The notes: generated by a model not told the origin, from the sequence alone. DNA of 19,683 nucleotides from Phycisphaerae bacterium (GCA_030608075.1 JAUWIU010000034.1:1-19683); one strand, 5' to 3'. Shown: positions 8,765 to 19,683, numbered from the stretch's first letter. A program made the numbers and translations.

Positions 8765-8858
8765 CCCCTGTCATTCCCGCGAACCCCTGTCATTCCCGCG
8801 AACCTATGTCATTGCCGCGAAACTTGTCCTGAGCGGAGCCGAAGGAGCGGGAATCCAG
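8765..8858. repeat. REP/BIME-like intergenic repeat. Three tandem ~19-bp units CCCTGTCATTCCCGCGAA (8765-8821), of which the third carries the left arm of a hairpin ATTCCCGC...GCGGGAAT. Homologous to the element at 12905-12956.
   Basis: Direct and inverted repeats read from the sequence. A 50-bp segment (TGTCATTsCsGCGAAACTTGTCCTGAGCGGAGCCGAAGGAGCrGGAATCCAG) is shared between the two loci. Confidence 0.6.
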
Positions 8859-8909
8859 ACTCTCGGCCGGCCATCGAGATAACCGCAGCAATTTCCAACT
8901 TTCAGGCAA

Positions 8910-12884: not shown

Positions 12885-13059
12885 CTGTTGCGGAAACGAG
12901 GTTTTGTCATTCCTGCGAAACTTGTCCTGAGCGGAGCCGAAGGAGCAGGAATCCAGTTTTTAGCCCGTAGACCCCTGCTCCCCGCTTTCGCGGGGACAAG
13001 TTTACACCTGCGAAAGCAGGTGCGGGGGTGACATCATTGGTTTTCGCTTTCCGCAACAG
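12885..13059. repeat. MITE/REP-like 175-bp element bounded by 12-bp perfect terminal inverted repeats CTGTTGCGGAAA (12885-12896 and 13048-13059). Contains three internal hairpins with GAAA/TTTC tetraloops.
   Basis: Read directly from the sequence. The hairpins are CATTCCTGC...GCAGGAATC, CCCCGC-TTTC-GCGGGG and CACCTGC-GAAA-GCAGGTG. The first hairpin module is homologous to 8808-8858. Confidence 0.55.
12905..12966 (+). terminator. Possible intrinsic terminator for the ABC permease gene. Hairpin CATTCCTGC...GCAGGAATC followed by CAGTTTTT.
   Basis: 8-9-bp stem with a large 28-nt loop, then a T5 run. Lies 28 bp after the stop at 12877, in a convergent intergenic region. Confidence 0.3.
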
Positions 13060-13750: not shown

Positions 13751-14626
13751 ATGCACACAAGACAACCCGTTGTCGCCGGACAGTTTTATCCGGGCCGACA
13801 TAATTCGTGCGTGGCCGAAATCGAAGAATTTCTCAAAGAGGCAACACTGAGCCAATCGCTGCCGCAAACGATAGTGGCCGGCATTGTACCACACGCCGGC
13901 TGGACCTTCAGTGCGGCCCCGGCGGCAATGGTCTTTGCAGCGGTAAAAAAACGCCACGAAAACGTAGATACCTTCGTAATTTTTGGAGCTGCACACGCCT
14001 ATTTTGGCTCCGTACCGGCCGTTTATGACAAAGGTAGCTGGCTTACTCCGTTAGGTGAGGTGTCAATCGATGAGGAATTGGCCGACGCAGTATTGAAAAC
14101 CAAACCCGCCGTCAGCGACCCGACAGCTCACAGCCCCGAGCACAGTATCGAGGTGCAGGTGCCGTTCGTACAGCATCTTTTTGCTCAGGCAAAGATACTG
14201 CCGATTATCGTTCCGCCCAGCGACGAGGCGATTCCGTTGGGCGAGGCTGTCGGCGATATTATCGCCGCCGAAGCCGACCGAAAAATCGTTTGTATCGGCT
14301 CAACCGACCTGACCCATTACGGCCCGCGCTATGGCTTCACTCAGATGGGAACCGGACCGGATGCTATCCAGTGGGCCCACCAGGTCAACGATAAGATGTT
14401 TATCGATTTGGCGTTAAAGCTCGACCCTCGAGCGATGCTCACAAGCGCCGCCGAGAACCACAACGCCTGCGGCGCAGGTGCCGCCGCCGCGGCGGTTGCC
14501 GCCGCAAGAAAACTGGGCAAAACCGAAGGCCTTCTGCTTGCACAAACCAACAGCAATGAAGTGATGCTGCAAAAGATGGGAACCTCAAGCGCAGAAAGTG
14601 TCGGCTACGCCGCAATAGTCTTTTAG
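13751..14626 (+). CDS. MEMO1-family protein (AmmeMemoRadiSam system protein B-like), ~291 aa.
   Basis: ATG at 13751 with AGGTGGGG Shine-Dalgarno. The track start at 13742 is a GTG. N-terminal VVAGQFYPG, and PHAGWTFS, HSIEVQVPF, GSTDLTHYGPRYGF, HNACGAG and SVGYAAIVF align with conserved MEMO1 blocks (PHAGY..G, HS.E...P, S.D..H.G.R..Y, NTICG, SYAAG). Confidence 0.8.
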   Translation: MHTRQPVVAGQFYPGRHNSCVAEIEEFLKEATLSQSLPQTIVAGIVPHAGWTFSAAPAAMVFAAVKKRHENVDTFVIFGAAHAYFGSVPAVYDKGSWLTPLGEVSIDEELADAVLKTKPAVSDPTAHSPEHSIEVQVPFVQHLFAQAKILPIIVPPSDEAIPLGEAVGDIIAAEADRKIVCIGSTDLTHYGPRYGFTQMGTGPDAIQWAHQVNDKMFIDLALKLDPRAMLTSAAENHNACGAGAAAAAVAAARKLGKTEGLLLAQTNSNEVMLQKMGTSSAESVGYAAIVF

Positions 14627-14719
14627 CGGGCGCGTCCCTGTTCGGCCCAGATTGTCGAAAAGTGCTTCCGCTGGCGGATAGACTAACTCAACAATTTTAG
14701 GAATTTTTACAGATTTTGC

Positions 14720-14748
14720 TTGAACTTGTATCGCAAGTTTGCGATAAT
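14720..14748 (+). promoter_or_regulatory. Promoter of the toxin-antitoxin operon with an embedded operator: TTGAAC (14720-14725), 17-bp spacer, extended -10 TGcGATAAT (14740-14748). Perfect 8-bp inverted repeat TATCGCAA-gt-TTGCGATA (14729-14746) overlaps the spacer and -10.
   Basis: Read from the sequence. A palindrome overlapping the -10 is the classical arrangement for TA autorepression. RBS AGAGGTAAGG precedes ATG 14765. Confidence 0.55.
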
Positions 14749-14764
14749 ATATTTAGAGGTAAGG

Positions 14765-15136
14765 ATGCCGAAAACAAAAATAACAATATATCAGGAACAG
14801 GCTGAAGTTGTGCCACTGTTGGATTGGTTGGACGAACAGTCTGAGAAGGTGCAGGATAAATGTATCGCTAAAATCAGGCGGCTGGAGAAAATGGGCCTTG
14901 AACTCCGCAGGCCGGAATGTGATTACTTGTCAGAGGGCATCTATGAGTTGAGAGTAAAAGGTAATAAGGTAAATTATCGTATTCTGTATGCCTTTTCAGG
15001 GAAAAATGCAGTTTTGCTTTCGCACGGCTGCACAAAAGGAAGGAAAGTCCCCAGGAAAGAGATAAAAAGAGCAATGAAAAACCTTGCGGAATACAAACGA
15101 AACCCACGCAAACATACTTTCAATGGAGAGTTGTAA
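14765..15136 (+). CDS. higB: Type II toxin-antitoxin system toxin, RelE/ParE superfamily (HigB-like / phage Gp49-like), 123 aa.
   Basis: Small basic protein encoded upstream of an HTH antitoxin (HigBA order: toxin first). Motif pattern matches Gp49/HigB-like toxins: LLDWLDEQ...KIRRLEKMGLELRRP...LSEGIYELRVKGNKVNYRILYAF...VLLSHGCTKGRKVPRKEIKRA. Confidence 0.65.
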   Translation: MPKTKITIYQEQAEVVPLLDWLDEQSEKVQDKCIAKIRRLEKMGLELRRPECDYLSEGIYELRVKGNKVNYRILYAFSGKNAVLLSHGCTKGRKVPRKEIKRAMKNLAEYKRNPRKHTFNGEL

Positions 15137-15138
15137 CA

Positions 15139-15462
15139 ATGGCTAAAAAGCAAAAAACAACAACCGATGCTGTTAAGATACTTCACAAGCGGTATATAAA
15201 TACACCCGCAAGGCGAAAATCTCTGGAAAAAGAAATACAAAATTCAGAGATAGCAGCCCGCATATACGAACTTCGCCAACAGGCAAAACTTAGCCAGAAA
15301 CAGCTTGCCGAACTCATAGGGACAACTCAATCAGTTATAAGCCGCCTTGAGGACGCTGATTATAAAGGCCATAGCCTTGAAATGCTTCGCCGGGTAGCAA
15401 CAGTGCTTCATTGCAAACTGAAAGTCCGGATAGTACCGGAAAACAAGTACGCCTACGCTTAA
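15139..15462 (+). CDS. higA: HTH XRE-family antitoxin (HigA-like), 107 aa.
   Basis: 2-nt gap after the toxin gene. GGAGAG RBS. Helix-turn-helix segment LSQKQLAELIGTTQSVISRLE, typical of Xre/HigA antitoxins. Confidence 0.65.
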   Translation: MAKKQKTTTDAVKILHKRYINTPARRKSLEKEIQNSEIAARIYELRQQAKLSQKQLAELIGTTQSVISRLEDADYKGHSLEMLRRVATVLHCKLKVRIVPENKYAYA

Positions 15463-15465
15463 CTG

Positions 15466-15534
15466 CATTTCCTTCTTCTCAACATCACCGCACCGAGGGC
15501 GAGAAGGAAGCGAGGCGAAGGAAACAGGTCGTCA
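15466..15534. repeat. Repeat copy A of a ~50-90-bp element family. Core TTCTCAACATCACCGC at 15476-15491, with CTTCTC/GAGAAG inverted arms.
   Basis: Shares 21 bp (TTTCCTTCT..CAACATCACCGC) and downstream blocks (CACCgAgGgCGAGAAG, GGAAGCG, GTCaTCAT) with copy C at 17794-17880. Confidence 0.6.
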
Positions 15535-15586
15535 TTAATGAGGATGCATTCAAAACTGGCTGAGAGTTTCCCTCTGCAACACGTGG

Positions 15587-16825
15587 TCAGGCTAACTTGC
15601 TTACTGCTTCGACGACCAGTTTGCCTATTGGCAGATGCTGCGGGCAGCGAGCCTCTGCAAGCCTGTAATCGGTAGCGAGTAGTTTGTTTCTTACTCTACC
15701 TGGGATTTCAGCAAACAGCTTCCTTGCTTTATCATACTCGCCGTAGCTATTGTAGTACATCAAATAACGCATAATATCACTAACGTAAGGTGCATTCGGC
15801 AGAACCGAGTTACAGATGTATGCACAGCCGGCACAATAACCGCTGCAACTCGCCTGGGTGTATGCATCGAAAACCTCGATATCCGTCTGCGAGAGTTTGG
15901 TTTTATCAAGCACTGCTGCAATATTTGAAGTCAGCAAGGCAACATTCTGCATCGCAACACACGCTGAGCTTATCCTCTTGTCTTCCAGCACAGCTTTTAT
16001 TTTTGCCTGTCCCTCGGTAAAACCTCGTTTAAGAAAATGCTCGGCCAGTTTTTTATCCTCGTCAGCTTTAATCTTTTTGCCCTGGGTTTTCATGGCAATA
16101 AGACCGATACCTGCTTTATAACACGCCTCGATAGCAGCCTGCATTTTATCGTCCTTCATCAATCGGAAGTTATAAGCTGTCTGTATCGCATCAATCCAAC
16201 CACATCTTGCTGCGGCTGAGAGACATCGGGACATATTCTTGTGAGTGCTGAAACCGAAAAAGCGAATCAGTTTCCTTTTCTTTGCACCTTCAGCCCACCT
16301 CTTCACTTCATCCGTTAACTGGCCTGGGTCGTACATTCGGTAAACCCCAAAGTACAGGTCGACATATTTGGTATGCATACGTTTCAGGGACGTCTGCAGA
16401 CATTTTTCTAAGTCTGCCGCTGTTTTTGAATCGGATTCCTTGGTGACAATAAACAATTCTTTTCGCACTTCGCGGTTCTTAGAAATGTATTTACCTATAC
16501 TTATCTCACTGTTTCCGCCTGCGGCAACGAGGGATGTATCCCAATGGTTGACTCCCCATTCGAGGGCCTTTCTCAAAACTATCGGTTCTCCAGCGCCGAA
16601 ACCAAGAGCCAGACACGGAATTTCAACTCCTGTTTTGCCTAACTTTCGTCTCGGCACTTGCGGTAATTTGGGCTTTTGTATTTTTTCTTTAGCATTAGGG
16701 TCAGTGACGTTTGGCTCGTTTGGAGCAGCCATCCCATTAGCACCAGCCAAGGCCGAACCTAAACCAGCAGCTCCCATCGTCTTCAGAAAATTCCTTCTAT
16801 CGATTTTATCTTGTTTTTCCTTCAT
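15587..16825 (-). CDS. Tat-exported aldo/keto reductase family oxidoreductase with a C-terminal Cys-rich (putative Fe-S) region, ~412 aa.
   Basis: Twin-arginine signal (DRRNFLKTMGAAGLGSALA). AKR-like core (ELFIVTKE..., GFSTH). C-terminal CSGYCAGCAYIC cluster (C-x3-C-x2-C-x3-C) plus an additional Cys, resembling COG1453-type AKR/Fe-S proteins. The track start at 16840 is a TTG with no SD. ATG at 16825 has a GGAG RBS. Confidence 0.75.
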   Translation of the reverse strand: MKEKQDKIDRRNFLKTMGAAGLGSALAGANGMAAPNEPNVTDPNAKEKIQKPKLPQVPRRKLGKTGVEIPCLALGFGAGEPIVLRKALEWGVNHWDTSLVAAGGNSEISIGKYISKNREVRKELFIVTKESDSKTAADLEKCLQTSLKRMHTKYVDLYFGVYRMYDPGQLTDEVKRWAEGAKKRKLIRFFGFSTHKNMSRCLSAAARCGWIDAIQTAYNFRLMKDDKMQAAIEACYKAGIGLIAMKTQGKKIKADEDKKLAEHFLKRGFTEGQAKIKAVLEDKRISSACVAMQNVALLTSNIAAVLDKTKLSQTDIEVFDAYTQASCSGYCAGCAYICNSVLPNAPYVSDIMRYLMYYNSYGEYDKARKLFAEIPGRVRNKLLATDYRLAEARCPQHLPIGKLVVEAVSKLA

Positions 16826-16850
16826 CGAATCAATCTCCAAAAAAATTCAG

Positions 16851-16880
16851 CGTTTTCTCAACATCACCGTCGCTGAAAGT
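16851..16880. repeat. Repeat copy B, truncated. CAGCGTTTTCTCAACATCACCG, core at 16855-16869. Overlaps the stop codon of the GIY-YIG-like gene.
   Basis: 25-bp match to copy C (CAGCGTTT(CC)TTCTCAACATCACCG). Confidence 0.5.
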
Positions 16881-17301
16881 TCCGCGGGGGATATTCTTTG
16901 TACAGTTTATAGTAATCGTTTAGTAATTCGGTCTCTGCCTGTTTTAGGGATTCCGCAGTGCCAAAAGGTTTATAAGCAATTTCGATACCGCCATAGTGGG
17001 TAATAATGTAACGGTATAAAGGCGAATTTTCACCAGAACAAAAAGCCTCAGCATACTTCATATATCTTCTATACAAAGTCTGCTTGGTTTGGCCGATGTA
17101 TACGATATTGCTTTCGGATTTAACTCTTGGTATCTTTTTTTCACAGACAAAGGCATATAAGACATTAGAGACATCCTTTGCTTCTTGAGAACCAAATACT
17201 TGCCTGAACTCACGCAAACAATCCTTTTTAGATTTATGGCTTTGGATGCTATTCGGTAAAGTGGCACAGGAACGAAAGAACTTTGATAGTGTTATAGCCA
17301 T
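16864..17301 (-). CDS. Small protein with a probable GIY-YIG nuclease-like domain, 145 aa.
   Basis: LYAFVCEK followed ~10 residues later by IVYIGQTKQTLYRRYMKY, with a downstream conserved Glu (AETELLNDYYKLY). This fits the GIY-x10-YIG...R...E pattern. Family assignment is by motif only. Confidence 0.5.
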   Translation of the reverse strand: MAITLSKFFRSCATLPNSIQSHKSKKDCLREFRQVFGSQEAKDVSNVLYAFVCEKKIPRVKSESNIVYIGQTKQTLYRRYMKYAEAFCSGENSPLYRYIITHYGGIEIAYKPFGTAESLKQAETELLNDYYKLYKEYPPRNFQRR

Positions 17302-17340
17302 TTCAATTGCCCTTTTCTACTTAAAAAGTTTCCTCCTCAT

Positions 17341-17385
17341 TATAACCGCACCAAGGCCGAGCAGCCAGAGAATACGATTACTTTA
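17341..17385. repeat. Repeat copy D, partial and divergent. AACCGCACCAAGGCCGAGCAG. On the minus strand it ends GGTGCGGTTATAATGAGGAGGAAAC.
   Basis: Aligns with the CACCAAAGCCGAGAAG block and the GCGGTGATGTTGAGAAGGAAAC end of copy C. Lies between two co-oriented minus-strand genes. Confidence 0.4.
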
Positions 17386-17390
17386 TCGCT

Positions 17391-17774
17391 TTAATGTTCT
17401 TCATTTTTTTGCTTCCACTCTTTGTAAAGCTTCTTTATCTCAAGTAACCAAACCCGTAATCTTTCCTCAGGGTCGAGTATAGGTTTTCTTCCAATTTCTT
17501 CAAAAAGACCCACAAAAAACCCTTTTCCTGGTAACTGGGCACCTTCCTTGTGTATAACTAAAGCTGACAAAAGAGGGTTGCCCTTTTTGTGTTCTTCCGA
17601 GGAAATTTCACCCAGAATATCTCTCAGTTTTTTATGCTGACCTTCTTCCCAAGACTCCTGTTCGTTAATACCCATCTCATGTAATAAATCCCCGTATGTA
17701 ATAAGGTCTTCCTTTGAGGCAAGTTCTTTGAGTCGCTTATATACATATTCTTTCATTTGAGCGTAATTCAGCAT
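17391..17774 (-). CDS. Hypothetical protein, 127 aa.
   Basis: Clean ORF with ATG start, co-oriented with its neighbours. Charged, no TM segment. No family recognized. Confidence 0.55.
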   Translation of the reverse strand: MLNYAQMKEYVYKRLKELASKEDLITYGDLLHEMGINEQESWEEGQHKKLRDILGEISSEEHKKGNPLLSALVIHKEGAQLPGKGFFVGLFEEIGRKPILDPEERLRVWLLEIKKLYKEWKQKNEEH

Positions 17775-17793
17775 TATGCTATCTTTCCTTTTC

Positions 17794-17880
17794 AGCGTTT
17801 CCTTCTCAACATCACCGCCTGTCGTGAGCGAAGCCGAACGGCACCAAAGCCGAGAAGCAAAATAGGAAGCGGTTCAGTCA
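17794..17880. repeat. Repeat copy C, the longest. Core TTCTCAACATCACCGC at 17804-17819. CTTCTC...GAGAAG arms flank a ~45-nt loop.
   Basis: Homologous to A, B and D (see the findings). On the minus strand it begins at the TGA stop of ORF 17874-18176 and ends ~35 nt before the start of ORF 17391-17774. Confidence 0.6.
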
Positions 17881-18176
17881 TCTTTTCTGTTTTTGAATGT
17901 AACAAGAAGTCCGCCAGTTACAGCGACCACAAGAGACCATTGGATTGCCAATCCTTTGCTGTCGATACGCTTGCGGTGATAACTAATCGGTTGCTCGGCC
18001 ATCTCGTCAAGAGACTTTTTTGTAGCAGCCATTTGTTCCAGTGTTAATGGGCTTGCTGGGTAGCGTGGCTTTCGCAATCGGAAAGTAGTAGTATAGTTGC
18101 ACAATTGGGCGAGACCCAATACTACAAAGATAGCAATTCCAGTCCAAAGAATTATCTTCTGTTTTCTGTTCACCAC
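17874..18176 (-). CDS. Small membrane protein, two predicted TM helices, 100 aa (GTG start).
   Basis: Hydrophobic segments IILWTGIAIFVVLGLAQL and LAIQWSLVVAVTGGLLVTF. Only a GTG start is available and the SD is weak. Confidence 0.45.
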   Translation of the reverse strand: MVNRKQKIILWTGIAIFVVLGLAQLCNYTTTFRLRKPRYPASPLTLEQMAATKKSLDEMAEQPISYHRKRIDSKGLAIQWSLVVAVTGGLLVTFKNRKDD

Positions 18177-18207
18177 TTACCGAATCTCGTATGGATTTCA
18201 ATTAACA

Positions 18208-18714
18208 TCAGACGCCAGCAAGCCAGTTTTCGGCCAGAATAGCAAAGTCCAGAGCATTTACCTTGCCATCACCATTGAGGTCGCCAGATAGTTCTGGTTC
18301 CGTTGCAGCAGGTCGAAAATAACCGAGTATTGTTAGCGAGCTGTAAAGTTTGCCAACAATGAAGTACAAGGATTCGCCAGATACAACTACAAGGCAACCA
18401 TCAGGGTATTCCTGCCTATACTGAAAGGGTTCACCTGTAGGCGTACTTCGAAAACTACCGTCAATAACAGTAGTTCCAGATTTTAATTTCCAAAATGTAT
18501 AATAGCCACCAGAGGTTTTAACTCCGTACGAGCTTTCCACATAAGCTCGAAGTAGAACCAATTCTTTGTCTTTGGGTACGGTAGTGACAAGATATTCACC
18601 GCTCTCTACCTTGTGGAGATGGGCAGAGAATCCATCACAGTCCTCACAAAGAGGCGAAGCAAAGAGAGACTCACAGCAGATAAACAGGAAAATATTGAGG
18701 ATTAACTTTTTCAT
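18208..18714 (-). CDS. Secreted protein with a C-terminal dockerin-like / EF-hand-like calcium-binding repeat, 168 aa.
   Basis: Strong RBS (AAGGAGG, 8 nt spacing). Signal peptide MKKLILNIFLFICCESLFA. C-terminal GDLNGDGKVNALDFAILAENWL matches the D-x-N-x-D-G-x-V-N-x-x-D dockerin type-I repeat pattern. Confidence 0.7.
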   Translation of the reverse strand: MKKLILNIFLFICCESLFASPLCEDCDGFSAHLHKVESGEYLVTTVPKDKELVLLRAYVESSYGVKTSGGYYTFWKLKSGTTVIDGSFRSTPTGEPFQYRQEYPDGCLVVVSGESLYFIVGKLYSSLTILGYFRPAATEPELSGDLNGDGKVNALDFAILAENWLAGV

Positions 18715-18774
18715 CGTTTTTACCTCCTTTTGTGTTAAGGCGGTGGCTTCACCAGAGCTGCCGCATTTTTTTGT

Positions 18775-18924
18775 TTACTTATTTTCGGCCTGTTTTTCTA
18801 CTATCATTTCAGCGATGTCTTTTTTATCCCGTTCTGATAGCTTGTAGTTTCTGGTTTGTATGCAGCCATGATAGCAAATAACAAATATTAAAGACATAGC
18901 AAGAAGCAAGGTTTTAATTCTCAT
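18775..18924 (-). CDS. Unannotated small ORF, 49 aa, signal-peptide/lipoprotein-like (MRIKTLLLAMSLIFVICYHGC...).
   Basis: Below the track's 60-aa cutoff. ATG with AGGAGA RBS. Hydrophobic N-terminus followed by Cys residues, and a charged C-terminus (SERDKKDIAEMIVEKQAENK). Confidence 0.4.
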   Translation of the reverse strand: MRIKTLLLAMSLIFVICYHGCIQTRNYKLSERDKKDIAEMIVEKQAENK

Positions 18925-19172
18925 TTTCTTCTCCTTTCAAAAAATCTTTGATATTTTGACGCGCCTGCACCGCGCAGACGCTTAATCCGCACACGCTAAA
19001 CTCCGATTATTCGCGTTTATGCCTCTTCTTCTCTTTCCCCCATTTTTGAAAAGCGATATTATTATAACCGGCTTGGTTTGCTTGTCAAGCAAAAAACTCC
19101 TTTGGGTAAAAATTACGTAGTTTCCACAATAGGGACAAATCGCCAGGAACGCAGCTATTTCTTGCCATTTGA

Positions 19173-19262
19173 CCCCTTGTGCCCTTATGCTCTTATGCTC
19201 TTATGCTCTTGTGCCCTTATGTTCTTGTCTCTTGTGCCCTTGTGCTCTTATGTTCTTGTTCT
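19173..19262. repeat. Tandem array of ~11 copies of an 8-bp unit CYCTTRTG (CCCTTATG/CTCTTATG/CTCTTGTG/TTCTTGT).
   Basis: Read directly from the sequence. The unit length is not a multiple of 3, so the overlapping track ORFs are artefacts. Lies ~50 bp upstream of a strong promoter. Confidence 0.75.
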
Positions 19263-19311
19263 CTCCGTCCTCTGCGCTCTCTGTGGTGAATTCTTTTTAT
19301 TCGTTTTTTTG

Positions 19312-19340
19312 TTGACTTTTGTTTGAAAATCTGTTAAAAT
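19312..19340 (+). promoter_or_regulatory. Near-consensus sigma70 promoter: TTGACT (19312-19317), 17-bp spacer, TAAAAT (19335-19340).
   Basis: Hexamers and spacing read from the sequence. Predicted TSS ~19347, about 310 nt upstream of the next start codon. Confidence 0.55.
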
Positions 19341-19346
19341 ACCTGC

Positions 19347-19655
19347 ATGTTTGCCAGAAGGCAAACGACAAACCGGCCGCAGGCGCCGGATATAGCGGAG
19401 AACCGCACGTTTTCGTATCAGCAGACACACGCCAAAAAGCATTATTTGTCAAGCCAGACAAGGTTTTGAACATTTACATTTGTTTACCCCGTGAGATAGT
19501 GAAGCGTTATCTAATGGGGTGTAATTTGGATTTTGATATTGTTTCGAATTGCGTTATTAGGATTTCGGATTTCAGTCTGCCGGATAACTCCTTATGCAGC
19601 AAGCTCTTATAGCCAACAGAATTATCTGGTTTTTTAGTACATAGGAGGCCTGTTC
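19347..19655 (+). ncRNA. Candidate structured 5' leader / cis-regulatory RNA (riboswitch- or attenuator-like) of the gene starting at 19656. Ends in terminator hairpin CCGGAUAA...UUAUCUGG + U6 (19580-19635).
   Basis: Several hairpins: GTTTGCC-agaa-GGCAAAC at 19349-19366, CCGGC...GCCGG, GCGG-agaa-CCGC, CTTGTC...GACAAG, CCCC..GAGATA...TATCTA..GGGG. A terminator-like stem plus T6 sits immediately before the AGGAGG RBS. The terminator loop contains ACUCCUUAUG, complementary to the SD region CAUAGGAGG. No known riboswitch consensus recognized. Confidence 0.4.
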
Positions 19656-19683
19656 ATGGCTACCGAACCCCAAACCCTACCAA
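19656..19683 (+). CDS. 5' end of a gene of unknown function (MATEPQTLP...), continues beyond the window.
   Basis: ATG with AGGAGG Shine-Dalgarno 8 nt upstream. Only 9 codons are visible. Confidence 0.4.

Follow-up and report, generated by a model that had tools for sequence, protein, structure and literature searches.

The complete 19,683-nt contig analyzed here (Phycisphaerae bacterium, GCA_030608075.1 JAUWIU010000034.1:1-19683; hereafter "the window") carries four related repeat elements, A to D, at the 3' ends of four minus-strand genes, which encode a Tat-signal aldo/keto reductase (AKR), a 145-aa GIY-YIG-like protein, a 127-aa protein and a 100-aa membrane protein. Judged by their sequence, the four elements are homologs of the DNA that encodes the membrane-spanning and basic part of PEP-CTERM tails, of a "GAVMLRRKR-type" conserved at the nucleotide level across Planctomycetota. 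None of the four is the C-terminus of the gene before it, each tail being out of frame, truncated or decayed. We think it probable that they are orphaned tail relics which sit at the seams between mosaic gene modules and serve as short shared homology for recombination.

Exact or near matches of a 16-nt core, TTCTCAACATCACCGC, occur at 15476, 16855 (one mismatch) and 17803, on one strand throughout, and three core matches were reached in 0 of 200 dinucleotide-preserving shuffles of the window; an independent repeat search recovered the same family. A DNA profile hidden Markov model (HMM) trained solely on elements from other genomes matched the minus strand at C (17789-17880, E 9e-13), A (15459-15513, E 3e-12), D (17324-17373, E 3e-8) and B (16846-16869, E 1.5e-3), with no further match anywhere in the window. 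An earlier reading of this DNA (hereafter the sequence-only reading) had described four co-oriented related elements, each following or crossing the stop of a minus-strand open reading frame (ORF), and both points are borne out by these searches. Its weaker "fifth copy" at 18203-18215 is the last codons of a 168-aa dockerin-type ORF, and the profile gives no match there even at E <= 100.

On the gene-sense strand, one frame of each element spells a hydrophobic stretch, an Arg/Lys cluster and a stop, and this tail frame is never that of the upstream gene: it differs for the AKR, the GIY-like gene and the 100-aa ORF, and in D two stops intervene. Element A (15459-15534, minus strand) is an orphan tail 73 nt past the stop of the full-length AKR gene (15587-16825, minus strand; Pfam); it reads ..INDDLFPSPRFLLALGAVMLRRRKCS and a stop in a frame other than that of the AKR, and its last codon overlaps the stop of the adjoining antitoxin/HigB-like pair at a TTAA palindrome. 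Element B (16846-16873, minus strand) follows the GIY-like gene (16864-17301, minus strand; weak Pfam match, E 0.007) and retains just the 3' core of the tail, ..ATVMLRKR and a stop, the TGA within its GGTGATG being the stop codon of the GIY-like ORF. At another locus (L058) the same gene is followed by a fuller tail, and B looks like that tail minus 24 nt, as a deletion might leave it. Element D (17324-17385, minus strand), behind the 127-aa ORF (17391-17774, minus strand), is a 5'-truncated, diverged and hybrid tail, ..NRILWLLGLGAVIMRRKLFK and a stop. Element C (17789-17885, minus strand), which crosses the stop of the 100-aa ORF (17874-18176, minus strand) in the +1 frame, is nearly a full tail, MTEPLPILLLGFGAV[RLRSRQAV]MLRRKR and a stop, in which the bracketed peptide stems from a 24-nt insertion (17819-17842, minus strand). 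This insert is also found in three loci from Pirellulales metagenome-assembled genomes (L053, 91%, and L064, 89% identical over 65-71 nt; L017, partial), and by its sequence it marks a DNA-level subfamily. The same junction (end of the 168-aa ORF, 100-aa ORF, C, 127-aa ORF) is present at 99.6% identity in an independent assembly (L126), so that neither C nor its frame offset can be put down to an error in this one contig.

The repeat belongs to a sequence family that is already known, the PEP-CTERM sorting signal of exosortase substrates (TIGR02595/PF07589; Haft et al., 2006, PMC1569441). The elements match such tails codon for codon, from PEP motif through hydrophobic helix and Arg/Lys cluster to stop. 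Unlike genuine tails, the window copies are in frame with no protein and follow proteins whose homologs lack the domain, their PEP motif is degenerate or absent, and the peptides of A, B, C and D gave no match or a sub-threshold one to TIGR02595 (NCBIfam cut-off, 16 bits; C edited to remove its 8-residue insert scores 15.8 bits). No window copy forms the C-terminus of a signal-peptide protein, the AKR and GIY-like homologs end without such a tail, and there is no exosortase (EpsH/Xrt) among the large ORFs of the window. The window tails are most likely untranslated relics, and their peptides presumably lack function. That a tail is the lost anchor of the gene before it was rejected for two of the four genes. 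Tail A is not the AKR's own lost anchor, because AKR homologs (3271 at E <= 1e-30) are ~410 aa long and PF07589 is found in none of the best 120; nor is tail B that of the GIY-like gene, whose product has no signal peptide and whose 45 relatives end in ..NFQRR and a stop. The 100-aa gene is an ORFan with one near-identical match only. Orphan or intergenic tails were not described by Haft et al. (2006; PMC1569441), and full-text literature searches found nothing relevant on PEP-CTERM in an intergenic, repeat, recombination or cassette setting.

Scanning 185,579 species genomes with the pattern GGTGATGTTGAGAAN{0,3}GGAAA yielded 102 loci, ~47 of them in Planctomycetota and carrying ..PEPATLLLLGLGAVMLRRKR and a stop (Phycisphaerae, Sedimentisphaerales, Pirellulales, and one single-cell genome with at least 12 copies). 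Some 10 copies close, in frame, ORFs of 190-400 aa that begin with a signal peptide; six of these proteins, scanned with NCBIfam, score 19.4-23 bits with TIGR02595, above its cut-off of 16, and PF07589 matches 5 of the 83 ORFs at 23 array loci. Since these in-frame relatives pass TIGR02595 and match PF07589, the family is genuine PEP-CTERM tail DNA. Most of the strong matches (~50 of 62) are orphans 0-290 nt past unrelated ORFs, with the tail frame open for 13-50 codons only, and many of them are 5'-truncated, at points that vary. The genes before them are varied, including a methyltransferase, a GT4 glycosyltransferase, an IS66 transposase, sulfatases and many uncharacterized ones. Wherever a locus has two or more copies, all copies are on one strand (21 of 21 loci), and the upstream neighbor is co-oriented with the tail in 42 cases vs. 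6. Locus L064 packs three 67-77 aa ORFs, each followed by a tail, into 1.2 kb, the last tail bearing the 24-nt insert of C, and orphans are also found on megabase contigs (L037, L042 and L077).

Several of these loci show additional features. At two of them (L081, 605-1464, and L078, 7076-7994) a protein with its own intact C-terminal anchor (..PEPTTIALLGLGGLALIRRRRR and ..ITFSGWLLRRRRML, respectively, each with a stop) is followed within 100 nt by a second, orphan GAVMLRRKR-type tail, forming tail-tail tandems. A ~110-nt repeat (AGTTAAACCACCCCACAGAATCTCACAGGACAGCTCTCACAGCCACTTTACGCTCGTAGAATCGCCGATC...) lies directly 3' of several tails (L059, L067 and L088, single amplified genome AM-311-F19, and L019); behind others comes a conserved promoter-like TTTTCCCTTGMWT-N17-TAnAAT.

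Three modules of the window recur elsewhere, as judged from a handful of comparison loci, all of which are metagenome assemblies apart from one single-cell genome. For the AKR module, L120-L123 (four independent assemblies) align at 90% identity to exactly 15473-16858, with no similarity outside, a stretch that comprises a tail 3' core, a 20-nt leader, the AKR gene and a 73-nt spacer up to the end of tail A; their neighbors differ, the upstream side carrying fragments of rubrerythrin and Rrf2 and the downstream side a Laminin_G protein. A further AKR copy (L118, 87.6% identical over 15563-16850) is tail-free and lies among housekeeping genes, and ~50 nt upstream of A, common to L120 and absent from L118, look like leftover C-terminal coding sequence. 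The GIY-like module (~16854-17363) is found in L115 (89% over 16525-17360) and L114 (92% over 16854-17363), which keep the order tail-GIY-B and have upstream genes of 181 and 236 aa vs. the 127-aa ORF of the window, the homology ending inside tail D; two more loci (L116 and L117) are 88.6% identical over 16870-17334, and the other loci of this family have unrelated contexts, most of them with no tail nearby. The 127-aa module is bounded by the stop codon of tail C on one side and by the middle of tail D on the other (17336-17797; 94.5% identity in L124 and 93% in L125), with genes that differ from those of the window on both sides and, in L125, the order [326 aa]-tail-[127 aa]-tail-[194 aa]. 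That related loci might carry different neighbors across the same repeats had been raised by the sequence-only reading, and this is what is found for all three modules. The orders seen in the window also recur, GIY-B-AKR in L115 and 100aa-C-127aa in L126.

Tail D is itself a junction: in alignment the 5' half goes with the tails of 127-aa units and the 3' half, together with the leader, with the tail upstream of the L114 GIY-like unit, and the two meet in a shared CTCGGCCTyGGTGCGGT. Because the halves match two lineages and meet in a shared stretch, D is recombinant, and modules placed in different contexts, homology that ends in the repeat and a hybrid repeat are together what a recombination junction looks like. 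The homology breaks fall in the middle of the tail (D), in GGTGAT (B), at the tail stop codon (C/127aa, and B/AKR vs. L118) and at the tail end (A), and this variation between junctions argues against a single fixed crossover point or a site-specific enzyme.

As an observation apart, L115 and L126 both derive from sample ERZ4220366, the latter with the 99.6% identical 100aa-C-127aa junction and the former with the 89% identical GIY-B-AKR order behind a different upstream gene. One metagenome thus appears to contain two related populations that differ in module order.

How the tails act at such seams can be inferred in outline. The string 100aa/127aa/GIY-like/AKR is a co-oriented, apparently promoterless mosaic within a lower-GC segment, and its tails would supply 20-60 nt of common sequence where modules can be swapped, inserted or removed. 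There is no sign of a dedicated recombinase, and the likely routes are ordinary homologous recombination, recombination at microhomologies and homology-facilitated recombination. Crossing over in two tails at once would exchange the gene that they enclose, and a circle of gene plus tail could integrate Campbell-style into a resident tail, leaving the gene between two tails of one orientation. For a foreign gene to be first captured between tails, an illegitimate join would be needed, and the AKR module fits such a capture, with its native leader, 24 nt of native 3' flank, the ~50 nt of leftover C-terminal coding and then tail A.

A likely parallel in mechanism is offered by Rhs/contact-dependent inhibition (CDI) "orphan" toxin-immunity arrays and by the minimal mobile elements of Neisseria. 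In both, a short conserved sequence common to many loci provides the homology for swapping adjacent modules, and displaced, non-expressed fragments are left in co-oriented arrays; there the conserved stretch belongs to the 5' part or core of a single gene family, or to housekeeping genes at the flanks, and the modules have related functions. By contrast, the conserved stretch of the window is a 3' sorting-signal tail and its modules are unrelated. In outcome the array would resemble that of an integron. The array is a member of none of the systems compared; it would be a case of repeat-mediated modular gene exchange, with coding-derived sorting-signal DNA as the repeat.

The codon usage of the family bears on how it spreads. 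GAVMLRRKR tails always read GGT GCG GTG ATG TTG AGA AGR AAA CGN, and other PEP-CTERM tails at the same loci have different peptides and codons; this invariance points to a family that spreads or homogenizes as DNA. Orphan A and its L120 counterpart are 69% identical with four indels, one of 2 nt, and the AKR coding sequences of the same two loci are 91.4% identical overall and 86.6% at third positions. Orphan A thus decays faster than synonymous sites, and with decay that exceeds that of AKR third positions, indels included, it is not under purifying selection as a peptide.

Several observations weigh against tails acting as shared homology. The 3' core GGTGCGGTGATGTTGAGAAGGAAA is almost invariant, third codon positions included, which could mean a nucleic-acid function or a protein-binding site; this invariance is partly circular, since most of the core sample was found with a pattern inside the core itself. 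Variability in orphans is 3-periodic (0.11/0.08/0.28 at codon positions 1/2/3, vs. 0.10/0.01/0.36 in in-frame tails), which fits repeated recent derivation from coding tails and is also compatible with translation. The comparison covers just three modules and few loci, all of them assemblies. Tails fill most of each short spacer (90-120 nt), so breaks would often fall in them by chance, and the varied 5' truncation of orphans needs extra illegitimate joins or deletions where homologous recombination predicts intact tails.

These last points are also the substance of a plainer explanation, which we regard as rather unlikely: that the tails are the decaying 3' ends of former PEP-CTERM genes in a high-turnover region, with no part in rearrangements, so that breaks coincide with them just because they occupy the intergenic space. 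The rapid decay of orphan A with its frame-breaking indels, the variable truncation points and the leftover coding sequence upstream of A, present in L120 and not in L118, would all be expected of such debris. Set against this are the switch of hybrid D exactly in the shared core, the same inner junctions with different outer neighbors for three modules, the strict co-orientation (21 of 21 loci) and the identical codons across orders. The opposite extreme, that the core GGTGCGGTGATGTTGAGAAGGAAA is the duplex site of a dedicated recombinase or machinery that shuffles promoterless genes behind one promoter, in a so far unrecognized Planctomycetota cassette system, appears improbable to us; if correct, it would be an integron analogue built on a coding-derived duplex site, and captured genes could gain or lose a surface anchor. 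An integron proper was the proposal of the sequence-only reading, and the layout does invite it: small unrelated ORFs that share one orientation and mostly lack promoters of their own, with a copy of a single repeat family after each (four copies behind four minus-strand ORFs with leaders of 17-25 nt), an upstream promoter, an adjoining toxin-antitoxin pair, lower GC, and modules reused in other arrays. The elements would then be attC sites that an IntI from another part of the genome recombines in folded single-stranded form, as in integron cassette arrays including clusters of attC sites lacking integrases (CALINs; IntegronFinder, PMC4889954). Arrangement and module reuse stand, whereas hairpin, box pair and fixed crossover all fail. 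Single-strand DNA folds of A to D, on both strands, are no more stable than 200 shuffles (z -1.08 to +0.36), and 23 full-length relatives fold a little less well than their shuffles do (mean z +0.67 and +0.42; lowest z -1.27). The CTTCTC/GAGAAG arms of the supposed bulged hairpin are Leu-Leu and Arg-Arg codons, and the end motifs read as R''/R' boxes are likewise PEP-CTERM codons, CTGAAC being Glu-Pro (GAA CCN) and GTTGAG Met-Leu-Arg (ATG TTG AGA). Neither strand of the whole window has an RYYYAAC...GTTRRRY pair, 50-150 nt apart, with at least 6/7 complementarity; the candidate boxes ACTGAAC (in C only) and GTTGAGA are off the attC consensus, and D has neither. As the sequence-only reading had noted, there is no intI in the window (no integrase among its 17 large ORFs), and none is among the families listed (top 25 of 119) for the 83 ORFs of the 23 array loci, the latter being weak evidence. 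Boundaries do not fall at one fixed position, as attC crossover at G|TT would require, and the repeat is coding-derived, forming the in-frame end of genuine PEP-CTERM proteins. The attC sites of chromosomal integrons are lineage-specific, unlike this family, which is common to several orders. An attC/integron identity is not supported on its testable features, and we consider this explanation close to refuted, with next to no probability left to it.

The remaining explanations keep a function for the tails or deny the rearrangements. That the core is a cis-acting nucleic-acid element overlapping tail codons (translation coupling or ribosome-binding context, 3' untranslated region stability, or a recombinase or regulator site) seems very unlikely. 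It would account for the near-invariance of GGTGCGGTGATGTTGAGAAGGAAA at silent positions, and in the window the next start codon lies 17-25 nt after the tail stop and the core contains AAGGA/GAGG; against it, the sample was ascertained with a pattern inside the core, there is neither secondary structure nor an Rfam family, promoter and terminator scans found no enrichment, the distance to the next gene is very variable at other loci, and the core of A's ortholog in L120 has decayed. We give still less weight to tails that are expressed, whether by frameshift or read-through fusion for conditional surface anchoring or as free small hydrophobic peptides. Such expression would be in keeping with the 3-periodic variation kept in orphans, the ATG with which C begins, a frame of A that is open back across the last ~20 AKR codons, a tail frame in L064 that opens at an A6 run and a tail in L001 in frame after two stop codons; it is hard to reconcile with frame offsets and gaps that are inconsistent (0 to 290 nt, either frame), the two stops upstream of D in the tail frame, the mere 8 codons of B, cargo that includes cytoplasmic enzymes, the loss of reading frame by the 2-nt indel between A and L120, and window peptides under the TIGR02595 cut-off. 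Finally, chimeric joins at the repeat could in principle give different neighbors, the comparison loci being metagenome or single-cell assemblies and repeats being classic misjoin sites. Such an artefact is extremely improbable, with the L120-type arrangement in four independent assemblies, the window's GIY-B-AKR order in L115 and its 100aa-C-127aa order in L126, orphans on three megabase contigs, and a shared tail stretch far shorter than the final k-mer of k141 contigs.

Three further candidates were tried and rejected. A dif/Xer-like site, considered as the core starts GGTGCG, has here no second arm and no palindromy. Terminators or promoters are not supported, with no hairpin and no enrichment in the scans. 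Repeats of the repetitive extragenic palindrome (REP), bacterial interspersed mosaic element (BIME) or miniature inverted-repeat transposable element (MITE) type resemble the elements as short families with many copies between genes, but the window repeats are not palindromic, form no hairpin and show no terminal inverted repeats, and the family keeps one orientation per locus and that of the upstream gene (21/21 and 42:6). Rfam 15 had no match in the window or in four array loci.

If orphan tails do act as shared homology, a protein-sorting signal would double at the DNA level as portable homology in several Planctomycetota orders, and expressed arrays would gain and lose unrelated genes by exchange, much as with an integron but lacking its machinery. 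This would explain the many small "PEP-CTERM-like" fragments that litter Planctomycetota genomes, and would be a caution both to annotators (fragments that are not genes) and to cassette hunters (repeats that are not attC). The tail core would further be a handle to map gene flux in a phylum with poorly known mobile genetic elements. Were the tails debris instead, the array would still serve as a worked case of coding DNA giving rise to a repeat that imitates a cassette array.

All four elements lie within a lower-GC segment (14600-19683; 41-46% GC vs. 51-60% in the remaining contig). The first large gene of the co-oriented string is the 168-aa secreted ORF (18208-18714, minus strand) with a dockerin-type motif at its end, after which the profile search found no tail. 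Upstream of the string lies a predicted sigma-70-like promoter (19061-19088, minus strand; TTGACA-16-TATAAT, 12/12 consensus). Together with the leaders of just 17-25 nt, this promoter suggests read-through expression of the modules from 19088-19061, which would also select for co-orientation. The toxin-antitoxin pair that the sequence-only reading saw next to the array is indeed there, a HigB-like (Gp49/DUF891) gene with a helix-turn-helix (HTH) antitoxin (14720-15462, plus strand; Pfam), convergent on the array.

The GIY-YIG-like family itself comprises 45 clusters, and its members (loci L103-L117) occur in wholly different contexts with a conserved 30-nt leader, CTTTTTAAGTAGAAAAGGGCAATTGAAATG; the 145-aa gene has the look of a mobile selfish gene. 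The window also contains, at 8765-8869 and 12905-12967, a second repeat family, of hairpin type (TGTCATTCCCGCGAA...GCGGGAATCC), with three tandem 19-mers and a 63-nt stretch (8807-8869) that recurs 4.1 kb away at 87% identity; in L110 the GIY-like gene has similar units ("ggattcc..gcgggaatgaca") on either side. The intergenic region before the array promoter includes, at 19159-19264, ~12 tandem 8-nt units (CTTATGCT / CTTGTGCC). The non-coding stretches 19294-19410 and 19524-19574 have no Rfam match; they match Planctomycetota loci L001 (68% and 90%) and L038 (92%), and may represent a conserved leader, or a small RNA, ahead of the ORF that starts at 19657.

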